A stretch of DNA of 48,850 nt, from positions 1 through 48,850 of the IMG/VR virus record IMGVR_UViG_3300002460_000044, one strand, 5' to 3'. Below, piece by piece: positions 5,948 to 24,809 of this stretch (position 1 is the first letter of the stretch; each line of letters begins with the position of its first letter). The translations under genes and the position numbers were made by a program. A model generated the notes under the pieces. It saw nothing but the letters and a program-made list of their open reading frames with translations. It did not search any database and was not told the DNA's origin. This DNA is from a virus.

Positions 5948-8785
5948 TTACCCTAGCTTGCTATCAATGTCCAGTTCTTGGCTTTCAGTATCAATAATCA
6001 TATCTCCACCCCTGTCTACCTGAAGATTAAGTTCCTCTTTTTCCTCTTCACCTGAAATAACTAAATCTGTATCTACTACATCTATCACATAAGGAAATGT
6101 GGTGGTAGTACTGGTGCTAGTGGTCGTGGACGTTGAGGTGCTGGTTGAGGTAGATGCCAATGTAGTAGTTGTACTGCTACTTGTTGAAGTTGTACTAGTA
6201 CTGGTACTTGTGGTGCTACTGGTACTGGTAGTAGTAGTACTCGTGGAGGTAGTAGTCGACGTGGAACTACTAATAGTTGTGGTTGAGGTTGATGTAGATG
6301 TGGTGGTTGAAGTTGAACTGCTGGTCGTTGTTGAACTGGTGCTGCTAGATGTTGTCGTACTAGTACTCGAGCTAGTAGTAGAAGTTGACGTACTCGAAGA
6401 GGTAGTTGTGGTAGAGGTGGATGTAGAGGTTGATGTCGAGCTACTTGTAGACGTTGTACTCGTGCTCGTAGTTATTGAAGTCGATGTAGAACTACTAGTC
6501 GTAGTCGTAGAAGTACTAGTTTCTGTAGTTGTGGTCGAGGTGCTACTGGAAGTAGATGTTGTTGTAGTACTACTTGATGTACTAGAAGAGGTTGTTGTAG
6601 TAGAAGTACTTGAGCTTGTCGTGGTAGAAGTACTTGAACTTGTAGTCGTAGTACTTGTACTCGTAGATGTCGTGGTGGAAGTAGAGCTGCTAGTTGTGGT
6701 AGTACTGGTGGAAGTTGAGCTTGTTGTTGAGGTAGAAGAAGAAGTAGTCGTTGTACTTGTGGAAGTGGAACTCGAAGTCGTGGTGGTTGACGTTGATGTC
6801 GACGTACTAGTACTACTAGACGTAGTTGTAGTAGAAGTAGAAGATGATGTTGTGGTTGTGGATGTTGTAGTTCCTGCTGCTGTATAAGTAGCATAGATGG
6901 AGTATTTATTAGTACTGTGAGTTGGAACTAATGGATCAGGAAAATTAAAACTTCCAATGCCTTGCTCGTGTCCTTGGTTTGTATCCCCCGTATCATAATA
7001 CATATCCCAAACATCTTTTGGCAGAATATCACTCATCGCCATAAGAACATAATCCGTGCTCGCAGAGAGCGATTCTGAAGACATTGTTGCTGTTCTCCAA
7101 GCCGCAGTTGTATCAACTACATCCGTAGCAGCAGATGTCCCAATTAATGATAAATCGCTATGAAGATAAATTGCCGTCTTAAACTCATCACCCGCACTAT
7201 AGGCAGAAGCTTTACCATAAACAGTTATGCTATCTAATGTTCCTGCCCCAGCCCCCATTGTAAACACAGAACCCCTACTTTGATGATTTCCAGCATTAGC
7301 AACTGTTGCTCCTATTGTTGTATACCCAAATGTAGGGTCAATAATAATGGGATAAACTTCGTTATCTAAAAAACTTTGAGGAATTTCAATTGTCAATATC
7401 TTTTTATTAACATCAATATCTAATTTTCCCCACACCCAATTTCCATCAGCATCAATAATTTTAGGTCTGTAAATATGAAAGGCTTTACCTGCTCGATAAT
7501 TTTTACCTTCCAAGTTAGAGTAATCCCCAGATTTTCTTTTATGATAAACAGCGTAAGAACCTACTACATCTATAGGTCTAAAGGAATGATTATTTCGTTC
7601 TTGGGGCGTAAGAGCTGGTTGATAATAAAAGTTTAATTCTTTAGTTTCTATCGAAAATAATAATTGATTGGAAACAGGTTTATTTTTTAATTCAATCTCA
7701 AACTCATAACCATCTCCTCTTTCAACTTGATAGCTATTATCATAACTAGCATCTTCTATCCAACTACGCTGACCGAAAATAGATGAACAATTAGTTACTA
7801 TTTCTTGTTCTTCGGGGGTAAAATCTCCATTGGTCAATGTCAATCCTATGTTTTCGGCTATCTTATTTACAACCTCATCCCCTATAGCAATAGTTAATTC
7901 GGGATTTATTTCATTTAAGTTTCCAATACTTTCAATAACATTGGTTTTGTCTGGAATTACTTTATAAGCATCTTTTACATATGACGGGTCAGTTCCTACG
8001 TTAATAAAAAATAAGATTGTATTTCCTTCTCTCAATATCCCACAGAATTTCTTGTCAGTTCCATTTTTGAAATATAAATCATTTCCTCTTTTCACCACCG
8101 AAATTCCTTTTGAGGAAAGAACGCTTTGAACTGAATCCAACAAAACCGAATCGTCTATTATAATGTGATTGGGAGTATAAATACGGATATGAACTGTCTT
8201 TTGATCGGAATAAATAACCCCAGACTCACTTTGGGTAGGATTCCTCACGATTCTTACATCCGATGGTATCTTATTAGTATTTAAGTATTTATCAGTAGTA
8301 TAAAAACCGTGAAAATGTAAAAGTTTGTCTTTCTGAGTATAAGAAATAAATACTGGAGCGTTGAACCGCATCCGCTTAAAAAGCTCTACAAAAGCAGGAC
8401 CAGTAGGGGGCTCTATATTATTCAAACTTATATGCCGAGGTAAAGTAGACGTGGAAATTGGAAGTTCTGGATTACTTCTACTATAGAAACGAGCTTTGGT
8501 CTCTTCGCCTTGCCAAACTATCTTATCGGCTTGGGTGGAGACTGTCGGAGTTAGTTCATCGGTAATTAGTCTGGCGGAAAAATTGACTTCATTTGTTTCG
8601 TCTTTATTTCCCCATCTACAGACTTTTATTTGTGGAAGAAACTCACCTGCAACTTTGCTATCTCCTACTTCTACTTCAATTAAATCTTTTATGCTATCTT
8701 TAGGGGTAGCAAAAAAGGTATTATCTTTTACAAGATATTTCTGTGCGACTTCATCACTAATATTATTTATTTTAATTACTGGCAT
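5948..8785 (-). CDS. Large fibre/appendage protein: about 640-aa globular N-terminal region, 258-aa Ser/Thr stalk, 49-aa acidic C-terminal domain
   Basis: The track ORF 5948..8824 starts at a TTG. In-frame ATG 8785 is preceded by SD GGAGGAAGGG, so I prefer it. The S/T tract spans 6098..6871. The tract is followed by the motif TTFPYVIDV. Confidence 0.7.
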   Translation of the reverse strand: MPVIKINNISDEVAQKYLVKDNTFFATPKDSIKDLIEVEVGDSKVAGEFLPQIKVCRWGNKDETNEVNFSARLITDELTPTVSTQADKIVWQGEETKARFYSRSNPELPISTSTLPRHISLNNIEPPTGPAFVELFKRMRFNAPVFISYTQKDKLLHFHGFYTTDKYLNTNKIPSDVRIVRNPTQSESGVIYSDQKTVHIRIYTPNHIIIDDSVLLDSVQSVLSSKGISVVKRGNDLYFKNGTDKKFCGILREGNTILFFINVGTDPSYVKDAYKVIPDKTNVIESIGNLNEINPELTIAIGDEVVNKIAENIGLTLTNGDFTPEEQEIVTNCSSIFGQRSWIEDASYDNSYQVERGDGYEFEIELKNKPVSNQLLFSIETKELNFYYQPALTPQERNNHSFRPIDVVGSYAVYHKRKSGDYSNLEGKNYRAGKAFHIYRPKIIDADGNWVWGKLDIDVNKKILTIEIPQSFLDNEVYPIIIDPTFGYTTIGATVANAGNHQSRGSVFTMGAGAGTLDSITVYGKASAYSAGDEFKTAIYLHSDLSLIGTSAATDVVDTTAAWRTATMSSESLSASTDYVLMAMSDILPKDVWDMYYDTGDTNQGHEQGIGSFNFPDPLVPTHSTNKYSIYATYTAAGTTTSTTTTSSSTSTTTTSSSTSTSTSTSTTTTSSSTSTSTTTTSSSTSTTSSTSTSTTTTSSSTSTTTSTSTSTTTTSSSTSTTTSSSTSTTTTSSSTSSSTTTTSTSSSTSTTTTETSTSTTTTSSSTSTSITTSTSTTSTSSSTSTSTSTSTTTTSSSTSTSTTSSSTSTTTSSSTSSTTTSSSTSTTTSTSTSTTTISSSTSTTTSTSTTTTSTSSTTSTSTSTTSTSSSTTTTLASTSTSTSTSTTTSTSTTTTFPYVIDVVDTDLVISGEEEKEELNLQVDRGGDMIIDTESQELDIDSKLG
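6098..6871 (-). repeat. Ser/Thr-coding low-complexity tract (258 codons) inside 5948..8785
   Basis: Translation is S/T only apart from single E, I, I, L and A residues. Plus-strand triplets are restricted to NGT / NGA / RCT. The repeat is degenerate at DNA level. Confidence 0.9.
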
Positions 8786-8824
8786 AAACCCTTCCTCCAT
8801 AAGTATCCGTGGGTCATATTTCAA

Positions 8825-11800
8825 TTATACCCCGATTGCTATTCCAAAGTCATAACCCCTTTCCACATTTATCGGATAAGGCACTGTTGTAGTAGTGCTA
8901 GAGCTAGTACTTGTGGTAGTGGTGGAAGTACTGGTTGAAGTACTCGTGGTTGTGGTTGTCGTCGAGGTAGAAGTCGTGCTGCTTGTACTCGAGCTAGTAC
9001 TGGTAGTGGTTGTACTAGTAGAGGTTGTACTACTTGTACTCGTGCTGGTTGAAGTGGAGGTAGTTGAACTGCTAGAAGAGGTGGTTGTAGTAGAAGTACT
9101 ACTGCTAGTACTAGTCGAACTAGATGTGGTGGTTGTACTGGTAGATGTACTACTCGATGTAGAAGTGCTGGTAGATGTCGTTGTTGTACTTGAACTAGTA
9201 CTGGTAGAACTTGTCGTGCTAGTAGAAGTACTGGTAGTGGTTGTACTACTACTCGTTGTCGTAGTTGAGGTGGACGTACTAGTGCTAGTACTACTTGATG
9301 TAGAGGTCGTTGTAGTCGAAGTCGATGAAGATGTTGTAGTGGTGCTAGTTGAGGTAGTGCTACTAGTGCTGGAACTAGTTGTGGTCGTAGTCGTCGAGGT
9401 TGAGGTAGTCGTCGTAGAAGAACTGGTACTAGTAGAACTAGTAGTACTCGTACTCGTGGTAGTGGTTGAAGTACTAGTGCTGGTAGTTGTACTCGTACTG
9501 GTAGATGTCTCTGTCGTAGTAGTTGATGTAGATGTAGTACTGGATGTACTAGAGCTGGTTGTAGTTGTACTGGTAGACGTGGAAGAACTAGTTGTAGTTG
9601 TGCTAGTCGAAGTGGATGTTGTACTAGACGTTGACGAGCTTGTAGTGGTGGTGGAAGTTGAAGATGACGTGCTAGTAGTAGTGCTGGTTGAGGAACTGGT
9701 CGTTGTCGTTGAAGTACTGGTAGACGAAGTTGTAGACGTGCTAGAGCTAGTGGTCGTTGTGCTAGTAGAACTGCTTGTCGTAGTCGTTGAAGTACTACTG
9801 CTAGTTGAGGTGCTACTACTAGTAGAAGTAGTGGTCGTACTAGTGCTGGTACTTGATGAAGTACTGGTACTGGTACTACTTGAGGTGGTTGTTGTCGAAG
9901 TACTCGAGCTTGTCGTGGTAGAAGTAGAACTACTCGTTGTGGTAGTCGAGGTACTGGAAGAAGTAGTTGTTGTAGACGTTGATGTGCTACTAGTCGTACT
10001 CGTACTCGAGGATGTCGTGGTTGTACTAGTGGACGTAGAGGTACTACTTGTCGTTGAAGTAGACGAACTAGTAGTTGTAGTGCTTGAGCTGGTACTCGTT
10101 GTCGTACTTGTTGAAGATGATATTGTAGTAGTACTAGTAGAAGTAGAACTGCTTGTAGTAGTCGTACTCGTACTAGTCGAAGATGAGGTTGTAGTTGTAG
10201 ATGTACTGCTACTGGTTGTTGTAGTAGAAGTTGTTGTACTCGAAGAAGTTGTGGTCGTAGACGTACTACTGGAAGTCGTAGTTGAGGTGCTACTACTTGT
10301 AGTGGTGGTAGAAGTAGAGGTGGAAGTAGTGCTACTAGTAGATGAACTTGTAGTAGTCGTCGATGTAGAACTACTAGTCGTGGTGCTAGTAGAGCTACTT
10401 GTAGTCGTAGTAGATGTACTAGAGGAAGTAGTCGTTGTCGAGCTAGATGTAGATGTACTTGTGCTACTGCTGGTGGTGGTTGTAGATGTACTACTTGAAG
10501 TAGTAGTCGTAGAACTGCTAGTACTGCTAGTTGTACTAGTGGAAGACGAGGTAGTGGTGGTACTAGATGAAGTACTCGAACTCGTCGTTGTAGAAGAAGA
10601 ACTTGAGGTTGTCGTGGTGCTAGTAGAAGTACTACTCGTAGTAGAAGTACTTGATGACGTTGTTGTAGTCGACGTTGACGAACTGGTAGTCGTGGTAGAC
10701 GTACTAGTACTACTCGTAGTTGATGTGGAAGAACTAGTTGTAGTCGTTGAGGTGCTTGTACTAGTAGAACTAGTAGTACTAGTAGAAGAACTCGTGGTCG
10801 TAGTGCTTGTACTGGTACTACTGCTGGTAGTTGTTGAGGTGCTGCTTGACGTGGTAGTGCTCGATGTCGAACTAGAAGTTGTCGTACTTGTACTGGAACT
10901 TGTTGTAGTTGTAGAAGTGCTAGAACTCGTTGTTGTGGTTGATGTAGAAGTAGAAGTTTGAGTTGTAGTAGTACTGGTACTGGTACTACTAGAAGTTGTG
11001 GTTGTTGAACTACTAGTTGTTGTTGTCGATGTACTACTACTCGTAGTGGTGGTAGAAGTAGAGGTACTTGAACTAGTAGTTGTAGTTGACGTTGATGATG
11101 ATGTTGTTGTAGTACTCGTGCTAGTTGATGAAGAGGTGGTCGTCGTCGAAGTACTGCTACTAGTGGTAGTTGTGCTTGTAGAAGAACTGGTTGAACTACT
11201 GGTGCTTGACGATGTTGTTGTCGTACTGGTTGAGCTAGAGGTGCTACTCGTCGTCGAGGTGGAGCTACTTGTAGTTGTAGTGCTAGTACTCGTAGATGTG
11301 GTGGTAGAAGTAGAGCTGCTAGTCGTGGTTGTAGAGGTACTAGAAGAGGTTGTTGTTGTCGAAGTAGAAGTCGAAGAACTAGTAGATGTAGAACTACTAG
11401 TGGTACTGGTGCTTGTACTCGTGCTACTGGTGGTTGAAGTAGAAGAACTAGTTGTCGTAGTACTAGAACTTGTCGTTGAGGTAGAGGTGGACGAGCTAGT
11501 TGTAGTAGTAGAGGTACTCGTCGAACTAGATGTAGTAGTGGTAGACGTACTGGTGGTTGTAGTCGACGTTGACGAGGAAGTACTGGTTGACGTAGTGGTG
11601 GTACTCGTACTACTCGAGGTTGTCGTAGTGGACGTACTTGTGGATGTAGAAGTACTGCTACTGGTAGTTGTCGTGCTTGTTGAACTCGAGGTCGTTGTTG
11701 TTGAACTACTTGAACTGGTACTTGTAGAAGTCGAACTCGAAGTAGTCGTAGTACTTGTGCTAGTACTAGATGTGGTGGATGTACTTGACGACGTGGTTGT

Positions 11801-12193
11801 TGTACTCGTTGATGTACTAGTAGTGGTGGTGGAAGTACTGGTGCTGGTTGTCGTAGACGTAGATGAACTTGTAGTGGTTGTACTAGTACTTGTACTACTA
11901 CTAGTCGAAGTAGAAGACGACGTAGTAGTAGTAGAGGTAGAAGTAGAGGTGCTAGTAGTTGTAGAAGTACTACTAGTAGTGGTGGTTGTTGATGAACTGG
12001 TACTAGTACTGCTAGTCGTACTAGTAGAAGTACTGGTTGTTGTAGTACTAGTCGAGGATGAAGTTGTAGTCGAACTACTGGTGGTGGTGGTTGAAGATGA
12101 GGTGGTAGTGGAGGTAGTGGTTCCTTCCGCTTGCAGCGTAATAGGAAATTCTAGTATTAATACTTTGCCATACGAACGGAGAAATCGAGCCAT
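8825..12193 (-). CDS. Giant mucin-like Ser/Thr protein (1122 aa) with short unique N- and C-termini
   Basis: A single 3.37-kb frame is open. N-terminus is MARFLRSYGKVLILEFPITLQAEG (24 aa) and C-terminus is VPYPINVERGYDFGIAIGV (19 aa). The 1079 residues between are S/T with only three interruptions (Q, I, E). It starts 19 nt after the upstream stop, and its stop abuts the next ORF. Confidence 0.7.
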   Translation of the reverse strand: MARFLRSYGKVLILEFPITLQAEGTTTSTTTSSSTTTTSSSTTTSSSTSTTTTSTSTSTTSSTSTSSSTTTTTSSTSTTTSTSTSTSTTTTSSSTSTSSSTSTSTTTTSSSTSTTTSTSTSTTTTSTSTSTTTTSSSTSTTSSTSTSTTTTSSSTSTSTSSSSSTTTTSSSTSTTTTSSSTSTSTSTSTTTTSSSTSTTTTSTSTSSSTSTTTTSTSTTTTSSSTSTSTTTTSSSTSTSTTSSSTTTTSSSTSTTSSTSTSTSTTSSSTSTSSSTSTSTTTTSSSTSTTTTSSSTSTTTSTSTSTTTTSSSTSTTSSTSSSTSTTTTSSSTSSSTSSSTSTTTTSSSTSTTTTSSSTSTSTTTTSSSTSTTTTSSSTSTSTTTTSSSTSTTTTSSSTTTTSSSTSTSTTTTQTSTSTSTTTTSSSTSTTTTSSSTSTTTSSSTSSTTTSSSTSTTTSSSTSTSTTTTSSSTSTTSSTSTSTSTTTTSSSTSTTSSTSTSTTTTSSSTSTTTTSSSTSTTSSTSTSTTTTSSSSSTTTSSSTSSSTTTTSSSTSTTSSTSSSTTTTSSSTSTTTTSSSTSTSTSSSTTTTSSSTSTTTTSSSTSTTTSSSTSTTTTSSSTSSTTSTSTSTTTTSSSTSTTTSSSTSTTTTSSSTTTSTTTTSSSTSTTTTSSSTSTSTTTTSSSTSTSTTTISSSTSTTTSTSSSTTTTSSSTSTTSSTSTSTSTTTTSSSTSTTSSTSTSTTTTSSSTSTTTTSSSTSTTTSSSTSTTTTSSSTSTSTSSSTSTSTTTTSTSSSTSTSSSTSTTTTSSSTSTTTTSSSTSTTSSTSTSTTTTSSSTSTTTSTSSSTSTTTTSSSTSSTTSTSTSTTTTSSSTSTSTTTTSSSTSSTTSTSTTTTETSTSTSTTTSTSTSTTTTSTSTTSSTSTSSSTTTTSTSTTTTTTSSSTSSTTSTSTTTTSSSTSTTTTSTSSSTSTSTSTSTTTTSSSTTTTSTSTSTTSSTSTSSSTTTTSTSTSTSSSTSTSTTTTSSSTSTSSSTSTTTTSSSSSTTSTSTSTSTSSTTSTSTTTTSTSSSTSSTTSTSTTTTTTSTSTSTSTTTTSTSSSTTTTVPYPINVERGYDFGIAIGV
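8885..12121 (-). repeat. Ser/Thr-coding tract (1079 codons); recurring degenerate unit about TTTTSSSTST
   Basis: Protein-level repeat using all 6 Ser and all 4 Thr codons (verified in sampled stretches). I saw no long exact DNA repeat by eye. Confidence 0.9.
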
Positions 12194-12211
12194 ACCTTAA
12201 TTATACTGTAC

Positions 12212-13393
12212 TTAATATGTATTGGCTCTATTAACTGCTTGGTTTAGTTGAACTAATTTACCTATTGGCACTGGTGGCGGATCATTGTTACTTGCTACCA
12301 CTTCTACCGCTATTGCTGTACATTGCAACCCCGCCTCAGCAGAATCAGGTTTAGTAAGACCTGCTTGCAAAGAATCTATAGCTCCTTGCGTCCACGCTAC
12401 ACCTCCTGGAGCCAACTCAAATGCTTTATTACGATTTACATAAGTTGTGAGGTCTAAGTTGTTATTTGCCTTATCAATTAAATTAGAAGTATCCCGAATG
12501 CGCACTGAGGAGTTTACAGTTTTATCAGCCACATTAGTTTTTAGATAAGTATAAACTTTAACACCGTCTATACTCCCCGTTGGAGTGATAGTAGATAAGT
12601 TAGAAGTGTGTGCTTTTATATCCCCAGCACAAGCAATGTTATTAACTGTATCTGGAGTTCCCCCACTCACAAAATCATCCCAATTTGAGAAATCTGCAAG
12701 GCCATCAGCGCAATCTGCATTCGTTCCCCAGGCGTCATTCGTGCCTTCTGAGGTAGGATTAATCTGTCCAATCCAGATATTAGTTCCTGGTCGATCTGAG
12801 GTAACACCCCCATACAAAGCCACTCGGTTCCACTTCACAGTTACCCCTGCTTTTCCCATACCTTCTAAAGTTAGAACATTATATTTGGGGTATGAAGTAA
12901 CATCGACAGTTAGTTCCAAAGTACCATTGACCCAAAGCAGCATTTGGCTATGGTTTATTTCCCAGCGGATCGCATAAGTGGTACTAGTTACGAAGGTCGT
13001 GGTGGTTGTCCCTGTTGCCCCCCCCACCGTCTCCGTCATTTCAAATTTATAAGTACCATCAGACTGTCCAATGGCACGAATGTTTAAGGCTCCAAACTCA
13101 TTTGGCAGAGCTGTTTTGAACCACATAACAGGAAAAGTATCACCCGTAGTGATTGTCCCTTCAATTCGGTAACCCCGAATACATAACCAATAAACTTGGT
13201 AAGTTGGTATAGTATCGTTAAATTGTCCAATAGCTTGTGTGTTAGTAGGGTTAATACACTGTATCCAATAAGTTCCTTGCGGTGGAACAGGAGATGTGGT
13301 TAAAGAGTAGGCAAGTCCTGTGTTTGGGCCATCATAATAAACTTTATAAAAGTTCATCTCTGGCCCGAAACAATTAATTAATCTACGAGCCAT
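12212..13393 (-). CDS. Structural protein with concanavalin-A/LamG-like jelly-roll signature (possible glycan- or receptor-binding component)
   Basis: 393 aa. The segment YAIRWEINHSQMLLWVNGTLELTV resembles LamG/ConA-like lectin folds. The ATG has SD GGAGGC 9 nt upstream. It lies directly upstream of the giant S/T gene. The fold call is by eye only. Confidence 0.35.
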   Translation of the reverse strand: MARRLINCFGPEMNFYKVYYDGPNTGLAYSLTTSPVPPQGTYWIQCINPTNTQAIGQFNDTIPTYQVYWLCIRGYRIEGTITTGDTFPVMWFKTALPNEFGALNIRAIGQSDGTYKFEMTETVGGATGTTTTTFVTSTTYAIRWEINHSQMLLWVNGTLELTVDVTSYPKYNVLTLEGMGKAGVTVKWNRVALYGGVTSDRPGTNIWIGQINPTSEGTNDAWGTNADCADGLADFSNWDDFVSGGTPDTVNNIACAGDIKAHTSNLSTITPTGSIDGVKVYTYLKTNVADKTVNSSVRIRDTSNLIDKANNNLDLTTYVNRNKAFELAPGGVAWTQGAIDSLQAGLTKPDSAEAGLQCTAIAVEVVASNNDPPPVPIGKLVQLNQAVNRANTY

Positions 13394-15011: not shown

Positions 15012-15926
15012 TTAGAGGGGTTCTATGTGGATTTCTTCTATTCTTTTATATGGTTTTCTAATTCCATCTTGACTCTGGTAAAACCCCCAAGGGTCAACAC
15101 CGTGTCCTTCATTCAAAGTTTCAGGCCAAAGATCACTTAAATTATTCCATCGTTTATCTTCATCGAATAAATTTAATTCCTTCGGTAAACTAGAAGCCTC
15201 ATCTTTACTCTTACCCCAATGGTGCCATACCCAACTTCTCATACTAGAAACCAATCGGTAACCCAATCGGTAGGCTCGGGCATTAAGGTCGTAGTCTTCT
15301 CCCCCACCAGGGTAAAACTTCTCGTCGAAGTAACCAACCCTGTCAAAAAATTCACGACGAAAGACAGGAAACCACATTGCAATAGCATCGATAACTCCTC
15401 GTTTGACAAGCGGGAAAGCCTCTGGTATATCGCTAACTCGTTCTTTGAGGTCTTCATAATTCCCTGCACAGAGATAATTCCAATCTTCTTCTGTGTAAGT
15501 TTCCTTATATTCTATTATATCAATATACTCACCATGATCTCTACCATAGCCCCACAGTGGTACTCGAGGGCTCTCAGGACATACTGCGAGTATTTTCTCA
15601 TCGGTAGCAAATTCATCAAGTATCCCTTGGAACCAAGAAGGGTGCATTGCTTCCGTATCGTCGTTAAGAATACCTATGTAAGGAATATTATTTCTATAAG
15701 CGATTGAAGCCATTTCGTTAGCTGCTTTCGCAAACCCCAGGTTTCTATAACTTCTAATCCATAGATGGGTAAGTTTATGATATTTAGTGTACGCCTCATC
15801 ATCTACTGTTTGGTCTAATACAAATATTCGCATCTTTTCGTTATCCGTATACTTTAAAAAGGTTTCTAAACATCTACCAATGTAATCACTTCTGACTATA
15901 GGAATACAGATAGCTAATTCTGGCAT
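15012..15926 (-). CDS. Family-2-like (GT-A) glycosyltransferase
   Basis: 304 aa. LAICIPIVRSDYIGRCLETF..MRIFVLDQT, NLGFAKAANE and ILNDDTEA (DxD-type) motifs. SD GAGGAG lies 5 nt before the ATG. Confidence 0.65.
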   Translation of the reverse strand: MPELAICIPIVRSDYIGRCLETFLKYTDNEKMRIFVLDQTVDDEAYTKYHKLTHLWIRSYRNLGFAKAANEMASIAYRNNIPYIGILNDDTEAMHPSWFQGILDEFATDEKILAVCPESPRVPLWGYGRDHGEYIDIIEYKETYTEEDWNYLCAGNYEDLKERVSDIPEAFPLVKRGVIDAIAMWFPVFRREFFDRVGYFDEKFYPGGGEDYDLNARAYRLGYRLVSSMRSWVWHHWGKSKDEASSLPKELNLFDEDKRWNNLSDLWPETLNEGHGVDPWGFYQSQDGIRKPYKRIEEIHIEPL

Positions 15927-16564
15927 TTTAGCTCCTCATCTGTTAATTCTGAAATGAATTTAAAAGTGGTATCCCCATCCCAAGGAAATGGATCCCATTC
16001 TTCTTCCATCTGCCTCATACCATTCCTGCCTTTAGAATCGGCTACGTTTATATCTTCTACGTGTCCATGAACCATTAAGGGATTACAAGTACAGTATGAA
16101 AGTAACCCTTCAGGTCGCTTTTCTCGATTGTAATGCTGATCCGCCACTTTGTATTCTCTTTCCATGAGAACCTGATATACCAACTGAGGGGAAGAATTGA
16201 CTGGTTTGGTTGAATCGGGAGTTTCATTATAAGGCTGGGGAAAAGTGATTTGCCAGCCTGGAGCCTTAAAAATTTTAGAGAAGCCCATATTTTCTGCTCT
16301 CTGGAGAAAAATATTAGCTGTATTAGTATCCCACTTGAGAACCTCGAAGTTATCATCGTGCCTCCATCCATGAACTAAAAGATCCACCCAATCCCTGTAT
16401 GGATTAAGTAGTTTAATAAAATCCGCCGTCATTCGGCCAGGGATAGCGAACATATTTACTTTAAATTTAGGGTACTTTGATTTCCAATACAATAGAAAGT
16501 TCATTCCGTTCCTATCATATTTATTTTCGAAATCGTCAAAGTCCAAGCAAATTGTCGAACTCAT
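15914..16564 (-). CDS. NodB/CE4-like polysaccharide deacetylase-like protein
   Basis: 216 aa. CLDFDDF resembles the TFDDG motif and LLVHGWRHDD resembles H(S/T)xxH. FKVNMFAIPG is also present. Motif-level call only. Confidence 0.4.
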   Translation of the reverse strand: MSSTICLDFDDFENKYDRNGMNFLLYWKSKYPKFKVNMFAIPGRMTADFIKLLNPYRDWVDLLVHGWRHDDNFEVLKWDTNTANIFLQRAENMGFSKIFKAPGWQITFPQPYNETPDSTKPVNSSPQLVYQVLMEREYKVADQHYNREKRPEGLLSYCTCNPLMVHGHVEDINVADSKGRNGMRQMEEEWDPFPWDGDTTFKFISELTDEELKCQN

Positions 16565-17498
16565 TCATCATCCTTTCCAAGGAATACTTATCCTCGATAT
16601 ATTTTCTAAGTTTTTTAGGTTCTTCTTTCGGTAACTTTATCATTTCTACCGCTTCTTGGTGGGTCTGATATAAATATTCATGAGACCATATATTCCTGCT
16701 ACCATAAAAATCATTTACTACTGGGGTAATTCCTTTTGCCATAGCTTCTCCTACAGCATAGCAAAAACTCTCTTTCATTCCTGGATGTAATAATATGTCT
16801 ATATTCTCATACCACTGGTTCATATCGTCTTGAGACGGGTACAGCGTAACTACTTTCCCCAATCCTCTACTCTCAATATAATGATTGTACATCACTCCCC
16901 AGTAAGGGGTACCACCTTCGTGCTGGCCTCTTATGTGTAGCCTCCACTTTGGATTTTCTTTATATAAAGTATTGAATATATCCAAACCTCCCATGTGGTT
17001 CTTCGGCATCCACATATCACCAAGCACCATACCTAGTTGATAACCGTCAGTTTTCTTTTTCTTTAAGGTAAACTTCTCTAAGTTCACAGATGGCCTTATT
17101 AACTTTAATTTACCTTTCCAGGTAGGAGCCTTCTCCAATATATATTTCTCAATGTGCGGTGCTATACAGATTCCTTGATCAATAAAATCTATGTAATGTT
17201 GTTCGTAGAAGGGTACGTAAGCGTTCCAGACATCCCAATCGATCATCCTGCAAACTATCTTTGGCTTCTTGTTATTATTCCAATCGGGGGTACGACTAAC
17301 CCCTTCTACTCCGTTATATAATTTCCACAAGTAGTTTATATTCCCCTCAAGCCACTCCACGTAATATATATCCGCCCATTGAGCCAGATACTCACTAGCC
17401 CCACGTTCGTATTTAACCTCATGACCTTTTTTATCCCAATGGTCAATAATATCCTGACAAAATTTCTTACCAGTATTGTCCGCTACAGCAATTTTCAT
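16536..17498 (-). CDS. GT-B fold (GT4-like) glycosyltransferase
   Basis: The track ORF starts at TTG 17522. I prefer ATG 17498, which overlaps the upstream stop as ATGA. An EX7E motif ESFCYAVGE is followed by AMAKGITPVV. Confidence 0.6.
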   Translation of the reverse strand: MKIAVADNTGKKFCQDIIDHWDKKGHEVKYERGASEYLAQWADIYYVEWLEGNINYLWKLYNGVEGVSRTPDWNNNKKPKIVCRMIDWDVWNAYVPFYEQHYIDFIDQGICIAPHIEKYILEKAPTWKGKLKLIRPSVNLEKFTLKKKKTDGYQLGMVLGDMWMPKNHMGGLDIFNTLYKENPKWRLHIRGQHEGGTPYWGVMYNHYIESRGLGKVVTLYPSQDDMNQWYENIDILLHPGMKESFCYAVGEAMAKGITPVVNDFYGSRNIWSHEYLYQTHQEAVEMIKLPKEEPKKLRKYIEDKYSLERMMNEFDNLLGL

Positions 17499-18196
17499 TT
17501 TCTTTTTAAAACTATTATCCAATCATGTCCTTTAACTTCTTTACCAATTCCTTCTGCAAGCTCTAATAATTTCCATTCAGAATTAGTATCTAAATATTTT
17601 AGAACCTTTTTTCTTGAATATGAATTAGTATATTCATTGGAATAGAGCTTTTCTTCTGGTGTACCTCTATGATCTATTATATTTTTAATCTCATGCTCTT
17701 CCGACTCAATAAATGGAACCCATCCGACCACGATAACCAGCTTCTTAGCTACTCGACAATGCTCATCCATCGCCTCCTCAAAGCTGTTCATATGGTCAAC
17801 TACGTGGCGAGAATATACTACATCCCAGCTTTTATCTGGTTGGTCTATTTTGTGGATTGAAGGATTGTAATCAAAAAACATATTCCCAAATTTTCCTTTA
17901 CACCATTCAGTATTTTTGGGAATTACATCTAAGCCCAGATAGAAAAATCCAGGTTTTCCAAACCAATCAATTTCCTTATCATCTCGTAATGCTTCAAAGG
18001 TGGTTCCAGAACCTGCTCCATAATCTAAGAAAGTATCATTTTTTACATACTTTTTGATTGCATAGAGTTGGGAAGGATGGTTTGGGCCGTTTCCTCCTCC
18101 CCTACAAAGAGTAGGTACATCCGGGGTATTAAACCATAGCTTTTCTGGATTTACTTTTGACACTGGCCTTAGATAATTTACGGGATTTTGTTCCAT
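17495..18196 (-). CDS. Class I SAM-dependent methyltransferase
   Basis: Motif I is FLDYGAGSGTT. The track start 18271 overlaps the upstream gene by 94 nt. Internal ATG 18196 has SD AAAGGA and reduces the overlap to 19 nt. Confidence 0.6.
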   Translation of the reverse strand: MEQNPVNYLRPVSKVNPEKLWFNTPDVPTLCRGGGNGPNHPSQLYAIKKYVKNDTFLDYGAGSGTTFEALRDDKEIDWFGKPGFFYLGLDVIPKNTEWCKGKFGNMFFDYNPSIHKIDQPDKSWDVVYSRHVVDHMNSFEEAMDEHCRVAKKLVIVVGWVPFIESEEHEIKNIIDHRGTPEEKLYSNEYTNSYSRKKVLKYLDTNSEWKLLELAEGIGKEVKGHDWIIVLKRK

Positions 18197-19140
18197 TCTT
18201 TTCCTTTCGCTAAGTAATTTTCTATTAGTTCTCCTAATTGGGCCATACGACAAGCAGATGTAAACTCCCAATGCTCACTTTCACACTCTTGGTCAGGTAT
18301 ATCTTTTAACATTTCTATAGCTTGTTTTGGTGTACTAAAAAACCCTACTGCTGGGCAAGTTAGCATCAGTTCCATCCCAGGGGCATATTGCTGACACAAC
18401 TTTCCACCGGCCCGTAGTACTTTACCTACCCGATTACTCCAATAACCCCAACAATTAGGATTGACACTAAATCCTAGTACTACCTTACTTCTAGCTATTA
18501 ACGCATTATATGCAGCACCATAAACAGCAGGGACAGCTTCAAAACCTTCTTTTATCCATTCTTCATAATTCCACGAGAATATTTTTACAGGTATTTCCTT
18601 GTTAATCTCTGTCAGAAAAGGCACTCTATCTCCCTGCTTTAAATAACTTCCAGTAAACACCACGTCATATTCTTTTGGTGACCCTCTAAAGGTAGGTAAA
18701 TCCCCATCACACACATCCATCTGAAAGTAACAAGGTTTTATTCCTTGTTTTACGTATTCAGGGAAAAGTCCTCCTTCTCCTGATAAATATAAATCAGCTG
18801 CTCTAGCCATTCCCAAATGCCAATCTGGAAAGCCTTGATCCCACATGTAATCCCATACCCAATATAGGACGGGGGCTCCACTTAGTTTCCTTAACTTCTC
18901 AGTGAAACTCCCATCGTAGAAGTGGTGCCATTTACAAATAATGTTTATATCAGCCTTTAAATCTTCTGGCACATCATACTTACCTTTAGGAAATCCCTCG
19001 ATAACATACTCCCGCCAAGCATCTCTGGGTATTCTATGAACTGTGTTACCTAGCCTCTCCAATTCTCTAGCTAAATGAACTTCGTCTGCTTCTTCACCTA
19101 CGTAGCCTTTTTGGTAATTGCCAATGAAATTTATTATCAT
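18178..19140 (-). CDS. CgeB-like / GT-B-like glycosyltransferase candidate
   Basis: 320 aa. DVVFTGSYLKQGDRVPFL and WSNRVGKVLRAGGKL resemble the CgeB/Glyco_trans_1_2 pattern. ATGA overlap with the upstream stop. Weakest of the GT calls. Confidence 0.4.
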   Translation of the reverse strand: MIINFIGNYQKGYVGEEADEVHLARELERLGNTVHRIPRDAWREYVIEGFPKGKYDVPEDLKADINIICKWHHFYDGSFTEKLRKLSGAPVLYWVWDYMWDQGFPDWHLGMARAADLYLSGEGGLFPEYVKQGIKPCYFQMDVCDGDLPTFRGSPKEYDVVFTGSYLKQGDRVPFLTEINKEIPVKIFSWNYEEWIKEGFEAVPAVYGAAYNALIARSKVVLGFSVNPNCWGYWSNRVGKVLRAGGKLCQQYAPGMELMLTCPAVGFFSTPKQAIEMLKDIPDQECESEHWEFTSACRMAQLGELIENYLAKGKEWNKIP

Positions 19141-19646
19141 AATTCCACCTTACTCATACTAGTATTTTTATCTATTCGTTTAAATAACTCCCACTTATTT
19201 ACTTTGTGGGTATTTACAAACTCGGCTACAGCTTGGACTACTCCAGGACTAGATTCATCACAATCGTGGAAGAGCATTACTCCGTCTTCTTTCATGTAGG
19301 GATACCACGATTTAATATCTGTCTTGCACCCCTCGTATGAATGATCCCCATCTATAAACAAAACAGCTATTTTCCCATTTGCCCAAGTTTTAGCAATCTC
19401 CTCACTTTTTCCTTGCTTAAATACCGTTCCTTCAATAAATACTGGGTCTTTAATATCTATACCAACTACAGAAACACCTGTCTTTGCCGCTTGACTAGCA
19501 ACCCACAAACTCCTACCCTTATCCACCCCAATTTCTACATAACTGTCCCCTGCATTTAATTTCTCTATCTCTGGTATCAATATCTCAGCATCAAAGGTGC
19601 TAAATGCCCCTTGTGGTGCTTCTTTGTCTAGTCTTTCGAGATCCAT
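19137..19646 (-). CDS. Class I SAM-dependent methyltransferase (Methyltransf_24 / CmcI-like)
   Basis: 169 aa. YVEIGVDKGRSLWV (motif I), VVGIDI, and LFIDGDHSYEGC, which is typical of this family. Confidence 0.6.
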   Translation of the reverse strand: MDLERLDKEAPQGAFSTFDAEILIPEIEKLNAGDSYVEIGVDKGRSLWVASQAAKTGVSVVGIDIKDPVFIEGTVFKQGKSEEIAKTWANGKIAVLFIDGDHSYEGCKTDIKSWYPYMKEDGVMLFHDCDESSPGVVQAVAEFVNTHKVNKWELFKRIDKNTSMSKVEL

Positions 19647-20118
19647 AGTTTCTTTCCCAATTCCTTTCTGCGTTTATTCTCGCTTGTACAGCCAAATCAT
19701 AATCTTTAAAACAACCAGCCCATTTTGCTATTCTATTCCTCTTTAAGGAAACAAACCAGTATTTTCCTTTATATAAAGTTACTCCTGGTATTCCACTAGT
19801 ATTATTACTTTGTAGTCCTTTATTTAATACATTTTCACTTCTTGTAACAACTCTCAAATTTTTTCTTCTGTTATCTAATTTATTTCTATTTTTATGGTCA
19901 GTCTCAACTTTAATTAAAATTCCTCTTGGATTTCCTAAGATAATCCTGTGCATATAGATTTTCCTATTCTTACCATTAACCCACTGATTTCTATGAGCAT
20001 AACCATTAGATCTATCAAAACACCATTTCCACTGGTTTAGCCAATTAAAGTCTTCATCGTCAACTAAAGCATATCTGCCTTGTGTTAATTTAATTTTTTT
20101 TACTGTATTTGCCTTCAT
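19600..20118 (-). CDS. HNH-AP2 homing endonuclease inserted in the glycosylation island
   Basis: From internal ATG 20118: MKANTVKKIKLTQGRYALVDDEDFNWLNQWKW..GYA...MHRIILG..VETDHKNRNKLDNRRKNLRVVT (HNH_3), then SGIPGVTL..KYWFV...WAGCF.DYDLAV.AR (AP2 domain). It overlaps the upstream GT by 29 nt and the downstream methyltransferase by 47 nt. Confidence 0.8.
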   Translation of the reverse strand: MKANTVKKIKLTQGRYALVDDEDFNWLNQWKWCFDRSNGYAHRNQWVNGKNRKIYMHRIILGNPRGILIKVETDHKNRNKLDNRRKNLRVVTRSENVLNKGLQSNNTSGIPGVTLYKGKYWFVSLKRNRIAKWAGCFKDYDLAVQARINAERNWERNYGSRKTRQRSTTRGI

Positions 20119-20899
20119 AATCAGGCGTAAATACCCTTTCTGGAGACTTTGGTATATCAAATGTAGCCTCCCATATTCCATCATCAGTTCTATTAAATCC
20201 CCATTTTTCTCGGAAGTAGGCGTAGTTTCGGAATCTATATGAATCATTTTCTGGTAGGAAAGTGCCTGAAGTTTGGGAGAAGTGATAGACGATACAATTA
20301 GTATTCTGGTATGGCTGTACTCCTGCAAGTTTAATTTTATATTCTAAATCCGAATCTCCGTTCGATCCAAAAGGATCGAAGTTAATATCATATCCTCCAA
20401 TTAAATCCCACAAATCTCTTCTTATAAGAAAAGGTAGATTAAATCCTGTTCTAATTCCTTGTCCTTCATATTCTTCTGCAAACTTATTCCATTTTTTTTC
20501 ATTAAAATCGTTTATACCCCCACAATCAAAAACTTCAAATGTTGGTGCTCCTGAATTCGGTTCTACAAGTTTCGGCGAAATACACAACATCTCTTCGGAT
20601 AATCCAGCCAATAAGTTTTCTAGCCACCTTTCTGGATATACCATGTCATCATTTGTAACTAATATCCAGGGATGATTTGTAGTTTGGGCAGCTGCATTTA
20701 CCGCAATACATTGTCCTTGTTGATTGATTTTTATATCACCATTTATAACATTATAAATACCATTTACTACTACACTTATACTAAGTGGTGTTCTTATAGT
20801 TGTTTCGGTTAAAGATCGATAGCAACGGCTTAAAACTGGCTTAGTCTTTTGTGTAGCCAAAGTAGGGATGATAACTAAAATATCGTTAGGTAATATCAT
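20090..20899 (-). CDS. GT-A fold glycosyltransferase
   Basis: ILVIIPTLATQ... and VTNDDMVY (DxD-type). I prefer ATG 20899 (SD GGAGAAG 7 nt upstream) over track start 20935. Confidence 0.55.
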   Translation of the reverse strand: MILPNDILVIIPTLATQKTKPVLSRCYRSLTETTIRTPLSISVVVNGIYNVINGDIKINQQGQCIAVNAAAQTTNHPWILVTNDDMVYPERWLENLLAGLSEEMLCISPKLVEPNSGAPTFEVFDCGGINDFNEKKWNKFAEEYEGQGIRTGFNLPFLIRRDLWDLIGGYDINFDPFGSNGDSDLEYKIKLAGVQPYQNTNCIVYHFSQTSGTFLPENDSYRFRNYAYFREKWGFNRTDDGIWEATFDIPKSPERVFTPDYEGKYSKKN

Positions 20900-22004
20900 T
20901 ATTAAACTTCTCCATACTGCTAATAATATAATCAAGATCAGATTTTTTTAGCCCCTGATGACACCCAAATAATAATCCATGTCTATTCACCCGCAGGGCT
21001 TCTGGATAATTCCGGTTATTTACCGTAATATATGGCTGATTTATTAAGGGCATTATAGTTCTGGTAGTAATCCCTTTTTTCTCTAAATACAAGATAAGTT
21101 CATTTCTCCTAAGATGAAAGAAAGGAAACATCATAAAGGCGTGATTATCTAAGTAGCTGTCTGGGTGGTGGTTACCCAGTTTTTTTGATAAGTACCTAGC
21201 GTTTTCTTGCCTCTTACTTAACATATTCTGCCAATTTTCCAGTTCTACCAACCCCAAGGCAGCTTCCATCTCCGTACTCCTACTTGAATAACCTGGATAA
21301 TTAAATCTAAATCTTGCTTCAATTACTTCTGGATTGTACTTATCATCGTCATCTATTTTCATATATTTGTTGTCCCTACCGTGAAAGACTAGACTACGGA
21401 TAAGATCAGCTAGTTTTTGGTCATTGGTACAAGCCGTACCGCCTACACCAGTAACAAGAAGGTGAGCAATGTAAAACGAAAAACAGGTTACATCTCCAAT
21501 TCCAACTCCATCTACAAACATAGTTTCGCAAGAATCCTCAATGACCTTTAATTTATACTTCCTGGCAATTGCCATAATTTCTTTCATTTTAGCTGGCTTA
21601 CCTAGTAGGTGGACTGGCATAATTGCACGAGTTTTTGGTGTAATTGCAGCCCCGATTAAATCTGGATTTAGATTAATATCCTTACCTATATCAACTACTA
21701 CTGGTGTCAGATTATTATGTACAACCACGTTGTAGGTCGCTACAAAAGTCACAGAAGGTATGATAATCTCATCCCCGTCTTTCCACTTACCTAGTATCTT
21801 CAAAGCGTGTATGGATGCTTGAAGGGCCGAAGTACCACTATTTGTGAACACCCCATATTGGTTATTGTGAAGTTTGGAGAATTTATCCTCAAACTCGGCT
21901 GTCATCGGGCCATAGGAAAGTCGGTTGCTTTTCAAAGCTTCAACTACTTTATCTATATGTTTCTGGCTCACGTGGATCGTGCCTACATCTATCGTTTTCT
22001 GCAT
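20886..22004 (-). CDS. DegT/DnrJ/EryC1-fold sugar aminotransferase/dehydratase with His at the PLP-lysine position (ColD/E1-like?)
   Basis: 372 aa. FTNSGTSALQASIHAL is present. In FSFYIAHLLVTGVGG, H aligns with the K of the canonical SFHxxK motif. Confidence 0.7.
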   Translation of the reverse strand: MQKTIDVGTIHVSQKHIDKVVEALKSNRLSYGPMTAEFEDKFSKLHNNQYGVFTNSGTSALQASIHALKILGKWKDGDEIIIPSVTFVATYNVVVHNNLTPVVVDIGKDINLNPDLIGAAITPKTRAIMPVHLLGKPAKMKEIMAIARKYKLKVIEDSCETMFVDGVGIGDVTCFSFYIAHLLVTGVGGTACTNDQKLADLIRSLVFHGRDNKYMKIDDDDKYNPEVIEARFRFNYPGYSSRSTEMEAALGLVELENWQNMLSKRQENARYLSKKLGNHHPDSYLDNHAFMMFPFFHLRRNELILYLEKKGITTRTIMPLINQPYITVNNRNYPEALRVNRHGLLFGCHQGLKKSDLDYIISSMEKFNNDIT

Positions 22005-22651
22005 ATAAACATAAAATTATAATGGCTAGAATCGGAATTTAACTGCTCCCCCTCGGCTGTTTCTTGTATAGTTAACTCCGCTTCTTCAAAGGCTTCTTCC
22101 AATGCTTGCTTAGAATATTCTTGCAGGTGGGTATCCTCCCAGGGTTCCTCTTCTTCTTTTTTACCCATCATATTTCGATCGTTTAGATTTGTTCCTTCAT
22201 TCACAAAAGAACGCCACAGAATAATAATTACATACTTTCTAGCTACTTTAGCCATTTCTTTTATGGCTGATTTATAGTCATCGAGATGATCTAAGGTGTG
22301 CATACAAACCACAGCATCCCAAGAGTTGTTTGGTTCTTTTAGTTTTCTGGCATCCTGTATCTCGAAACTTCCTTCTGGAAATGTATCTTTAGCTATGGCC
22401 ACCATCGCCCAAGAATAATCTATACCCTTGTATTCAAATCCATAATCTTTATTCAATTCATATAATGGGCCTGTACCACAACCAACGTCAAGAAAGCCCT
22501 CAATTCCTAACTCTTTCATCTTGTCCAATAAATAAATTCGGTGCTTCTGTGACCCCATCTGGTAGGTTGATTTAAAGGAATCCCAGTAAGTTCTTTCAGT
22601 TTGTCCGTTGTGCATCTTCCTCCATTTTACGATCATATTCTTCTGGGTCAT
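21989..22651 (-). CDS. Class I SAM-dependent methyltransferase
   Basis: Motif I FLDVGCGTGPL, and VVCMHTLDHL. Start ambiguous: ATG at 22651, 22636, or 22615 (the last with SD GGAGGAAG). Confidence 0.65.
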   Translation of the reverse strand: MTQKNMIVKWRKMHNGQTERTYWDSFKSTYQMGSQKHRIYLLDKMKELGIEGFLDVGCGTGPLYELNKDYGFEYKGIDYSWAMVAIAKDTFPEGSFEIQDARKLKEPNNSWDAVVCMHTLDHLDDYKSAIKEMAKVARKYVIIILWRSFVNEGTNLNDRNMMGKKEEEEPWEDTHLQEYSKQALEEAFEEAELTIQETAEGEQLNSDSSHYNFMFICRKR

Positions 22652-23255
22652 TGTCTAAAAGCTGCAAATTAGTACCAGCCATAATATGAGTTATAATGGT
22701 CTTGTTAGTATCAGTCCACTTACCTAACCGCTTATACAAATCTTGCTCTGCTAACAAGGAAAGATTCTCATTCCACCTGCCTATTTCTTCAAAATGCTTC
22801 TTTGTAATCATCATTAGTCCAGCATCTCTACCACCCCTCATACTCTCTTGATCAAATGAATCTCTATTATAAGTGGCCTTCACGTATTCTCTGCTTCTTG
22901 GGACTTGATCTGGAAATACTGCGTCATAACCTTGTTCAATATATTGCCTAAGACCTGGCAACCATCCTTCGTGAACAAAAACATCGTTTTGAATAAATAC
23001 TAGGTACTCACCTCTAGCAACTTGTGCTCCTAGATTCATGCAAACGGTGTAGCCTGGATCATTGGGTAAATTAAAGTATTTATCCACTTTCAATACGTTG
23101 TAATCATCTCTTATTGGAAATTTAGGTACTGGATTCATCACAATCAGTTCGTAGTCTTCTGGATCAGTAAACTTGGTTATATTGGCAATACAAGCCATCG
23201 ACATGTGAGCGTTAAATCTGGAGTTGTTAAAACAGGTCAAAATTATACTCGTCAT
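22596..23255 (-). CDS. GT-A fold glycosyltransferase
   Basis: 219 aa. MTSIILTCFNN..., DPGYTVCMNLGAQVARGEYLVFIQNDVFV. ATGA overlap with the upstream stop. Confidence 0.55.
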   Translation of the reverse strand: MTSIILTCFNNSRFNAHMSMACIANITKFTDPEDYELIVMNPVPKFPIRDDYNVLKVDKYFNLPNDPGYTVCMNLGAQVARGEYLVFIQNDVFVHEGWLPGLRQYIEQGYDAVFPDQVPRSREYVKATYNRDSFDQESMRGGRDAGLMMITKKHFEEIGRWNENLSLLAEQDLYKRLGKWTDTNKTIITHIMAGTNLQLLDNDPEEYDRKMEEDAQRTN

Positions 23256-24133: not shown

Positions 24134-24809
24134 ACGCCTCCATCTGGTCGAACTGCCCTACATAATCTTTTAATTCAGCATTGTGTTTTTGCATCTCTGG
24201 TGTAAACGATTCGGGATAACCCCAATTAGTCTTTCCAAAAGGATGATAAGCTCTAAGCTTAGTGGTTCTACCCGTTTTCCAGCCATTACCTTGTAACCTG
24301 CTGCAAATCCATCTTTCTTCGTTATTTCTGCCACTACTTATTTTATGTTCCCAACCGTTTACTTTTCTTACTGCCTCTGTCCTCATTATTCTCATTACCG
24401 CCCCGCACATATTTACTTCCTTCACATCTTCTGGGTCTTTTGGGTCAAAACCAACCGCCCCAATAAGAATGTGAGGATGTAAAGAAATTGCTCCGTAAGT
24501 TGGTCTTTCATCCATAAACTTAACCATTTGTGAAAGCCAATCTGGCTCTGTCTGCGGTACATAAATATCATTATCACTCGTAATAAAATATTCGCTTTCA
24601 GATAGAGCCAAGGCAATATTCCACGCTCCGTGTATCCCAATATTTTCCGATAAACCAACATACAAATCCACTTCATCCTTAAATTCCTCATTTCCGCCGT
24701 TATCAATAATTGTTAGCCTATACGGGGTCTTAGTACGCTCTTTCAGATACTTAATTGTATTTGCAGTGAAATGCTGTCTTAGAAACGTGGTGAGAAATAT
24801 ATCTATCAC
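24105..24809 (-). CDS. GT-A fold glycosyltransferase
   Basis: 234 aa. RLTIIDNGGNEE, NIGIHGAWNIAL, ITSDNDIYV. The GTG start overlaps the upstream stop as GTGA. Confidence 0.55.
   Translation of the reverse strand: MIDIFLTTFLRQHFTANTIKYLKERTKTPYRLTIIDNGGNEEFKDEVDLYVGLSENIGIHGAWNIALALSESEYFITSDNDIYVPQTEPDWLSQMVKFMDERPTYGAISLHPHILIGAVGFDPKDPEDVKEVNMCGAVMRIMRTEAVRKVNGWEHKISSGRNNEERWICSRLQGNGWKTGRTTKLRAYHPFGKTNWGYPESFTPEMQKHNAELKDYVGQFDQMEAYDNETWLPK

Follow-up and report, generated by a model that had tools for sequence, protein, structure and literature searches.

A near-pure serine/threonine gene in an uncultured groundwater podophage and its possible role as an acceptor for phage-encoded glycosylation

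What use could a phage have for a protein made almost only of serine and threonine, and is the frame that encodes it a gene at all? The question is raised by an open reading frame (ORF) of 1,122 amino acids (aa), here called ORF1, in IMG/VR record IMGVR_UViG_3300002460_000044, the whole stretch of which (48,850 nucleotides, nt) was analysed and is referred to as the window. ORF1 lies on the minus strand at 8825..12193, with an ATG start and a TAA stop at 8825-8827, and Ser and Thr together make up 96% of its protein. In the reading that we favour, with a probability of about 0.68, the ORF1 protein serves as a disordered, mucin-like acceptor onto which enzymes of the phage place O-linked glycans; its glycosylation and its location on the virion are what we infer. 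The parts of ORF1 are the following:

12122..12193, minus strand: N-terminal peptide, aa 1-24, MARFLRSYGKVLILEFPITLQAEG (ortholog counterpart MARLLRSYGIILIREFPITLVVG)
8885..12121, minus strand: Ser/Thr tract, aa 25-1103 (1,079 aa); grammar T4/S3/(TS)n, synonymous codons random
8828..8884, minus strand: C-terminal peptide, aa 1104-1122, VPYPINVERGYDFGIAIGV

The ORF1 protein and its orthologs

As the original prediction had stated, only the first 24 and the last 19 residues and three isolated positions (Q412, I691 and E895) depart from the Ser/Thr composition. The tract contains 577 Thr (53%) and 501 Ser (46%), is 99.7% Ser/Thr, and has no Gly, Pro, Asn or Ala. The recurring motif TTTTSSSTST, which had likewise been predicted, was found 45 times. 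Thr runs were mostly of length 1 (181 runs) or 4 (70 runs), while among Ser runs the common lengths were 1 (179 runs) and 3 (88 runs). Exact repeats in the protein reached 57 aa, as compared with 18 aa after shuffling of residues, 25 aa after shuffling of runs, and 39 ± 4.5 aa (maximum 52) after shuffling of units, and at order 7 the conditional entropy of the protein was down to about 0.5 bit per residue. Such a pattern lies well outside what chance would give. A single-sequence AlphaFold2 (AF2) model of the tract had a predicted local distance difference test (pLDDT) value of 26 and zero secondary structure, and the 24 N-terminal residues showed no hydrophobic core (maximum 19-residue hydropathy 0.82). 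The exact protein was not present in a collection of 15 billion sequences, and as a protein-database query it returned only 7 matches, all of them globular proteins bearing tracts.

A contig of 63.6 kb (L014, identical to L021), whose tail adaptor is 66% identical to that of the window, carries at the position of ORF1 a 1,606-aa ORF with the N-terminus MARLLRSYGIILIREFPITLVVG and the C-terminus TTTTVPYPINVERSDLVIGVTV. Its tract of 1,565 aa follows the same grammar, with 3 non-Ser/Thr residues out of 1,565, so that the frame, as the original prediction required of a real gene, and also the two termini are kept in a related phage. The termini of ORF1 and of this ortholog differ by 17 synonymous and 6 non-synonymous codons; of the first 20 codons, 7 are unchanged, 9 have synonymous and 4 have non-synonymous differences. 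Between the two tracts no DNA similarity above the shuffle null was detected, and the ratio of non-synonymous to synonymous substitution rates within the tract is therefore not computable. In L010 (adaptor 93% identical) ORF1 is reduced to a startless 70-codon remnant (4756-4968) ending in ...TTTTVPYPINVERSDLVIGVGV. On this comparison ORF1 has been kept over considerable divergence, with changes in length, and some genomes can do without it. The retention of the grammar while DNA and exact Ser/Thr order diverge suggests that enzymes or glycan packing constrain the local patterns. Beside the remnant in L010, at 5430-8774, is the gene of a 1,114-aa protein in which a short spacer separates two Ser/Thr tracts, of 361 and 305 aa.

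ORF1 shares its strand with its neighbours and is packed against them, the gap to the upstream stop being 18 nt, and not 19 nt as first counted. The stop of ORF1 had been described as abutting the next ORF, which holds from stop to stop; the likely start of that next gene, ORF2, is an ATG at 8800 or 8785, 24 or 39 nt past the TAA of ORF1, behind a GGAGGAAGGG ribosome-binding site. Read-through of the TAA with fusion of ORF1 to the same-frame ORF2 was considered unlikely, the stop being TAA and ORF2 having a strong ribosome-binding site of its own. An origin of the MAR... N-terminus of ORF1 from the adjacent 393-aa gene or from P0035-type domains was rejected, as BLASTP similarity was absent. 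No terminator-like sites were found on the minus strand between 4000 and 15200, a promoter and terminator scan gave nothing beyond chance, and an Rfam search gave no match.

Glycosylation genes and the proposed filament

The same Ser/Thr tracts are borne by at least seven proteins of the genome (ORF1 and at least six others), several of them recognisably structural. Pure tract amounts to 1,574 residues in total, or 9.7% of the genome, all on the coding strand. ORF1 is the extreme of this set, and with so many tract-bearing proteins the whole particle is probably sugar-coated. The interval between the capsid and the tail adaptor genes measures 24.4 kb, half of the genome. Three small paralogs with Ser/Thr tails come first after the capsid gene, a 168/170/393-aa gene module, ORF1 and ORF2 close the interval, and between them stands the following block:

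15012..28442, minus strand: glycosylation block, 13.4 kb, in the same operon direction as ORF1

The block contains about 10 GT2/GT1-type glycosyltransferases, 4 methyltransferases (one TylF-like), a DegT aminotransferase, an NAD epimerase/dehydratase, a nucleoside diphosphate (NDP)-sugar dehydrogenase-like ORF, and an HNH endonuclease. No transmembrane protein, flippase, polymerase, lipid-carrier priming enzyme or transporter was found in it, and no DNA-hypermodification genes were detected; these absences favour direct cytoplasmic glycosylation of protein. The NDP-sugar dehydrogenase-like ORF (26356-27114, minus strand) covers only positions 73-295 of the 413 of its profile and may be truncated or a short variant.

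In four further contigs, L010, L017 (SRR29748400), L018 (ERZ25039515) and L021, a glycosylation cluster stands immediately upstream of the tract proteins and tail genes, with spans that exceed 10 kb at the upper end and come to at least about 4 kb in L010, where the locus sets the limit. The pairing of tract and cluster is thus syntenic in 5 distinct phage contigs, the window included. Relatives without a glycosylation cluster (L001, L003 and L019) have no tracts; L001 and L003 are HK97-type contigs that share a 168/170/393-aa gene module with the window at about 89% identity and show no visible cluster. In the distant relative MW202785 the adaptor follows within about 1 kb after the capsid gene, with neither glycosylation cluster nor Ser/Thr tract. 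L018 carries a 937-aa ORF with a 536-aa tract. L021 has another set of enzymes in its cluster, among them a sugar C-methyltransferase and an enzyme similar to GDP-mannose dehydratase, and this points to a different glycan; directly upstream of its ORF1 ortholog it encodes a CBM96 carbohydrate-binding protein.

In the proposed mechanism, ORF1 would be translated as an intrinsically disordered, mucin-like polypeptide, and its 1,079-residue tract would be O-glycosylated by soluble enzymes of the phage itself. The result would be a long bottle-brush of glycans, a filament whose contour we estimate at about 0.27-0.39 μm (at 0.25-0.36 nm per residue); podovirus heads are typically a few tens of nanometres across. 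Through its short conserved peptides at the N- and C-terminus the filament would be docked to the particle or to partner proteins, and the coat might serve adhesion to host or matrix polysaccharide, or shielding. The originally predicted glycosylated fibril, anchored by its short termini, is strongly suggested by evidence beyond that first reading, namely the glycosylation block, the tracts on structural proteins and the pairing in four further contigs, while the glycan and the virion location are still inferred. If the tract is glycosylated, a tailed phage would be spending about half of a 49-kb genome on its own sugar coat, with a dedicated mucin-like backbone longer than the particle, which would bear on phage adhesion to matrices or hosts, or on evasion of recognition, in groundwater communities.

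Several points weigh against the acceptor reading. The support comes from gene sequence, genomic context and predicted disorder. The ribosome-binding site of ORF1, AAGG, is a weak one that lies close by the ATG, at a distance of 1 nt, the termini are too short for a fold or a binding partner to be assigned, and, judged from L010, ORF1 is dispensable in at least one close relative. The single-sequence AF2 model is weak evidence for disorder of the tract. Contig L004 has some glycosyltransferases and no pure Ser/Thr tract. Peripheral GT2 enzymes can act on lipid carriers without transmembrane segments, and the cluster could use host export machinery for a polysaccharide.

Some of these points speak equally for a different account, in which the tracts are unglycosylated flexible spacers or entropic bristles and the block serves host envelope polysaccharide remodelling, DNA glycosylation, or something similar. 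The glycosyltransferases of L004, the general knowledge that GT2 enzymes handle lipid-linked intermediates without membrane segments, the existence of Ser/Thr linkers free of glycans, and the prediction of disorder by AF2 under either account are all compatible with it. We nevertheless regard it as rather unlikely, as no priming transferase, flippase, polymerase, transporter or DNA base-modification genes were found, tract and cluster co-occur syntenically in the 5 contigs and are both absent from the cluster-less relatives, and a mere spacer would not readily account for a Ser/Thr purity of 99.7% with Gly, Pro, Asn and Ala all absent.

The acceptor reading can be extended to a wider proposal, put forward tentatively and at odds somewhat worse than even, that this podophage lineage builds a genetically templated glycocalyx. 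Its own enzymes would read T4/S3/(TS)n as a sequon code on Ser/Thr polymers of 1,100-1,600 aa, both free-standing and appended to other proteins, with half of the genome devoted to the task; as gene callers prefer the antisense strand, such genes would be missing from databases and might be far commoner than they appear.

Reading frame, selection and codon usage

AGR codons are absent from the Ser/Thr frames: none occurs among the 255 AGN codons of ORF1, the 51 of ORF2, or the 331 of the L014/L021 ortholog, whereas 42% of the ACN and 45% of the TCN codons of the ORF1 tract end in a purine. Because such a constraint is meaningful only if AGN must encode Ser, the absence of AGR indicates that the Ser/Thr frame is selected. 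Among the single-base changes possible from the tract codons, 55% would give another amino acid and 1.8% a stop (57% disruptive together), and non-Ser/Thr residues stand at only 3 of the 1,079 positions (0.3%) despite randomised synonymous sites. By these codon counts ORF1 is under strong selection for Ser/Thr purity and for its frame. The earlier argument for a coding sequence selected for composition is borne out by them, together with the frame and termini of the ortholog and the agreement of four assemblies.

We consider it very improbable that ORF1 is low-complexity sequence left over, decaying or runaway, from a tract protein that lost its globular domain, open only since Ser/Thr codons rarely become stops. 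Such a remnant would fit a gene with almost no non-repeat sequence, its loss in L010, the widely varying tract lengths of relatives (1,079 versus 1,565 aa), and the fact that two other frames are automatically stop-free. The mutational figures given above would be difficult to reconcile with decay, however; an indel of ±1 anywhere would cut off the conserved C-terminal peptide, which in the two orthologs is nevertheless read in frame over 3.2 and 4.7 kb, and the change in the termini is mostly synonymous.

On the opposite strand, two ORFs run over the tract:

8895-10961, plus strand: antisense shadow ORF, 688 aa, Val/Leu/Glu/Asp-rich, called as a gene in public records
10998-12200, plus strand: antisense shadow ORF, 400 aa, Val/Leu/Glu/Asp-rich, called as a gene in public records

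In antisense, ACN is read as GTN, TCN as GAN and AGY as CTN, and this frame is stop-free automatically because of the ACN/TCN/AGY codons. Gene callers chose these ORFs in the ENA records L005-L007; that they are the true genes is hardly credible. The absence of AGR constrains the Ser/Thr frame only, one Gln codon interrupts the antisense frame at 10961/10998, one polymorphism shortens the longer ORF from 688 to 682 aa, and random switching between TCN and AGY at Ser would flip the antisense residue between acidic and Leu. The strand is moreover opposite to that of nearly all genes of a 38-kb co-directional block, and the conserved termini are read on the Ser/Thr strand. If callers prefer the antisense strand in this way, surveys of predicted proteomes will miss this class of Ser/Thr ORF. 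The ENA annotation of L018 likewise places antisense genes rich in Val/Leu/Glu/Asp over the Ser/Thr tract of its 937-aa ORF, at 14108-15811. A protein-database query with the 688-aa antisense product, meant to count hidden Ser/Thr ORFs, gave no scored match, probably owing to composition filtering.

A chimeric or collapsed assembly, common as misassembly is in low-complexity regions, has next to no chance of explaining ORF1, given that three ENA assemblies from different samples differ from the window at 0, 1 and 0 of 7,446 nt (in ORF1 itself they are identical save for one base in one of them, so that four assemblies agree with the window included) and that the region, with no DNA repeat longer than 23 nt, can be assembled from short reads.

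At the DNA level the tract uses all six Ser and all four Thr codons, as predicted, so that the plus-strand triplets are restricted to NGT/NGA/RCT. The counts are ACT 201, ACA 148, ACC 135 and ACG 92 for Thr, and AGT 186, TCT 108, AGC 69, TCA 66, TCG 44 and TCC 27 for Ser, and the comparison of codon usage that the original prediction called for gave frequencies close to those of the Ser and Thr codons in the remainder of the genome. The predicted lack of long exact DNA repeats was also found: the longest was 23 nt, equal to the 22.2 ± 2.5 nt obtained in 500 shuffles of synonymous codons among positions of the same amino acid, and the Tandem Repeats Finder program returned only short, low-score arrays. 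Short-read assemblers recover ORF1 intact because its DNA has no repeats. When protein-identical repeats of at least 30 aa were pooled, their codon identity was about 0.20 (individual pairs 0.10-0.33) versus about 0.25 expected, and identity of the Ser codon class (AGY or TCN) was 0.507 versus 0.500 expected at random. Within the TTTTSSSTST unit no position favours any particular codon. Adjacent identical codons numbered 120 in ORF1 against 123 ± 9.5 expected, with no active avoidance seen; in the L014/L021 ortholog they are depleted (150 versus 183 ± 11, z = -3.0). Codon scrambling in ORF1 is real, yet indistinguishable from neutral codon choice, and selection for it is not demonstrated. The idea that scrambling protects the gene from recombination keeps its premise, and depletion of tandem identical codons is seen in the ortholog only. 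The ORF1 tract is a natural case of a strongly patterned protein on repeat-free DNA.

Known systems and the surrounding genome

In the papers searched, no description of such Ser/Thr genes of phages was found. To our knowledge, glycosylation of phage virions has been described chiefly for mycobacteriophages and is far more modest there; as far as we know, these phages have only a few glycosyltransferases, and it is the capsid and tail-tube subunits that bear short extensions. The arrangement is alike in that glycosyltransferases are encoded beside virion structural genes, here about 10 between capsid and adaptor. According to the summary in PMC12619734, the mycobacteriophage glycans are attached to the C-terminal parts of virion subunits, and mycobacteriophage virion glycosylation is the subject of Freeman et al. 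2023 (Cell Host Microbe), as cited in PMC12619734 and PMC12582341. The window differs by its 13.4-kb pathway, its dedicated tract-bearing accessory proteins and its free-standing 1,079-aa acceptor, and its capsid protein, which ends in ...GDGAAYSG, has no Ser/Thr tail.

The serine-rich repeat glycoproteins of Gram-positive bacteria (Fap1, GspB, PsrP) are O-glycosylated in the cytoplasm by GtfA/B, exported by an accessory Sec system, and form surface fibrils. ORF1 resembles them in its very long Ser-rich repeat region and in the dedicated soluble glycosyltransferases. It differs in being a viral protein without signal peptide and without an LPXTG anchor (C-terminus VPYPINVERGYDFGIAIGV), in a phage that has no SecA2/SecY2 and no GtfA/B equivalog (NCBIfam), and in its T4/S3/(TS)n grammar, theirs consisting of SAS[ET]-type dipeptide repeats.

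The PTS domains of mucins are extended, disordered, Ser/Thr-dense scaffolds for dense O-glycans, and the mucin genes known to us are repetitive at the DNA level (variable number of tandem repeats). The ORF1 tract is comparably dense in Ser/Thr and predicted to be disordered; unlike them it is free of proline, and its DNA repeats are at the synonymous-shuffle null. Giant viruses, with the fibril glycans of Mimivirus and Vp54 of chloroviruses, glycosylate globular acceptors. The phage likewise carries its own sugar-nucleotide and glycosyltransferase genes; it is, in contrast, a tailed phage with a 49-kb genome, half of which is spent on the module, and ORF1 has no globular domain. No homologs of GMC-oxidoreductase-type fibril proteins were found by Pfam or PDB sequence matches in ORF2 or the 393-aa protein. 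Synthetic codon-scrambled repetitive genes were reportedly made by Tang and Chilkoti in 2016, and like these ORF1 gives a repetitive protein from non-repetitive DNA. ORF1 is natural, however, and its scrambling matches random draws from the codon usage of the genome, so that no design or special selection need be invoked.

The tract-bearing proteins other than ORF1 for which positions are given are:

5948..8800, minus strand: ORF2, fibre-like: globular N-domains, then a Ser/Thr tract of 258 aa (6098-6871), then a C-terminal tail of 49 aa
4308..4628, minus strand: 106-aa protein encoded next after the tail adaptor; Ser/Thr tail at its C-terminus (4311-4478)
29820-30146, 29538-29810 and 29263-29535, minus strand: three small paralogs immediately downstream of the capsid gene, each with an N-domain of about 50 aa and a Ser/Thr tail of 40-55 aa

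The 628-aa N-terminal part of ORF2 was modelled with a pLDDT of 91.7, and its beta-rich core is similar to domains that other phages have in their "minor tail" and collagen-repeat fibre proteins, while a PDB sequence search with the N-domain gave nothing significant. The ORF2 family has at least 787 members, and tracts occur in none of the top 120. The conserved core of this family ends in ...KYSIYATYTA, exactly where the ORF2 tract starts, and the motif TTTT[VF][PN]Y[PV]I[NDE]V follows the tract in ORF1, ORF2 and several relatives alike. Taken together, these two features imply that the tract plus its tail behaves as a portable module placed on different heads; by this comparison ORF1 is such a tract-plus-tail module with almost no head. 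A search with the 49-aa tail of ORF2 against 1.84 billion representatives found only its own 46-aa fragment, which public annotation, truncating ORF2, has catalogued as a separate protein (P0162). An insertion of about 250 aa in ORF2 (window positions ~7721-8473, minus strand), which is missing from most family members and undetected by Pfam, was predicted by Foldseek to have a lipoate-protein ligase A fold (template modelling score to the target 0.70-0.73, root-mean-square deviation 3.5-4 Å, about 16% identity).

Homologs of the 106-aa protein in L009, L012 and L014 have an internal tract. The three paralogs are candidate capsid decoration proteins; they share a domain of about 50 aa of the GD.Y.N...N.W..Y.G..W type, for which the sole family hint is a weak one to DUF2793 (E = 0.1).

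The window is a complete podophage genome of about 48.8 kb, circular or terminally redundant, since its first ~76 nt (1-76) are identical to 48775-48850. Its source is an uncultured groundwater phage. Landmarks outside the glycosylation block are:

35849-37345: terminase
33604-35823: portal
30211-31128, minus strand: major capsid protein, end of the head module
12212..13393, minus strand: 393-aa gene directly upstream of ORF1, fold not assigned, part of the 168/170/393-aa module
4632-5780, minus strand: tail adaptor (SU10_adaptor, PF24175), start of the tail module
975-2789: beta-helix tailspike

A megablast search of 25 kb against 50,697 phage records gave no match, nor did the adaptor protein, and the closest cultured capsid is 39% identical. 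In an attempt to assign a host, adaptor and capsid searches of 185,579 reference genomes returned no relatives, and the window was found to have no tRNAs. The L021/L022 contig (IMGVR_UViG_3300002460_002255, 63,603 nt) has the same glycosyltransferase gene near both ends, about 52.8 kb apart, and is probably longer than one genome (a concatemer).

The 168/170/393-aa module (12212-14501, minus strand) recurs in the HK97-type contigs L001-L003, which have tape-measure genes; there the 393-aa protein is 89% identical, and the module precedes a prohead protease, with no Ser/Thr ORF after it. From this distribution the module looks like a recent exchange between unrelated phages. A PDB sequence search with the 393-aa protein gave nothing significant. 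The last 13 residues encoded before ORF1, V.[LI]NQAVNRANTY (12212-12250 in the window and 12247-12285 in L021, minus strand in the window), are conserved on otherwise unrelated proteins, namely the 393-aa protein of the window and the 210-aa CBM96 carbohydrate-binding protein of L021, and could be a docking peptide or a recombination junction.

Between the module and the glycosylation block, at 14503-14997, a 164-aa minus-strand ORF overlaps a 126-aa plus-strand ORF (14560-14940). The product of the latter is called in ENA records of the same phage and matches HNH_3; it would be the sole opposite-strand gene of the block. A further HNH gene was found at 19600-20328, and 511-954 holds an ORF with a weak resemblance to LAGLIDADG proteins.

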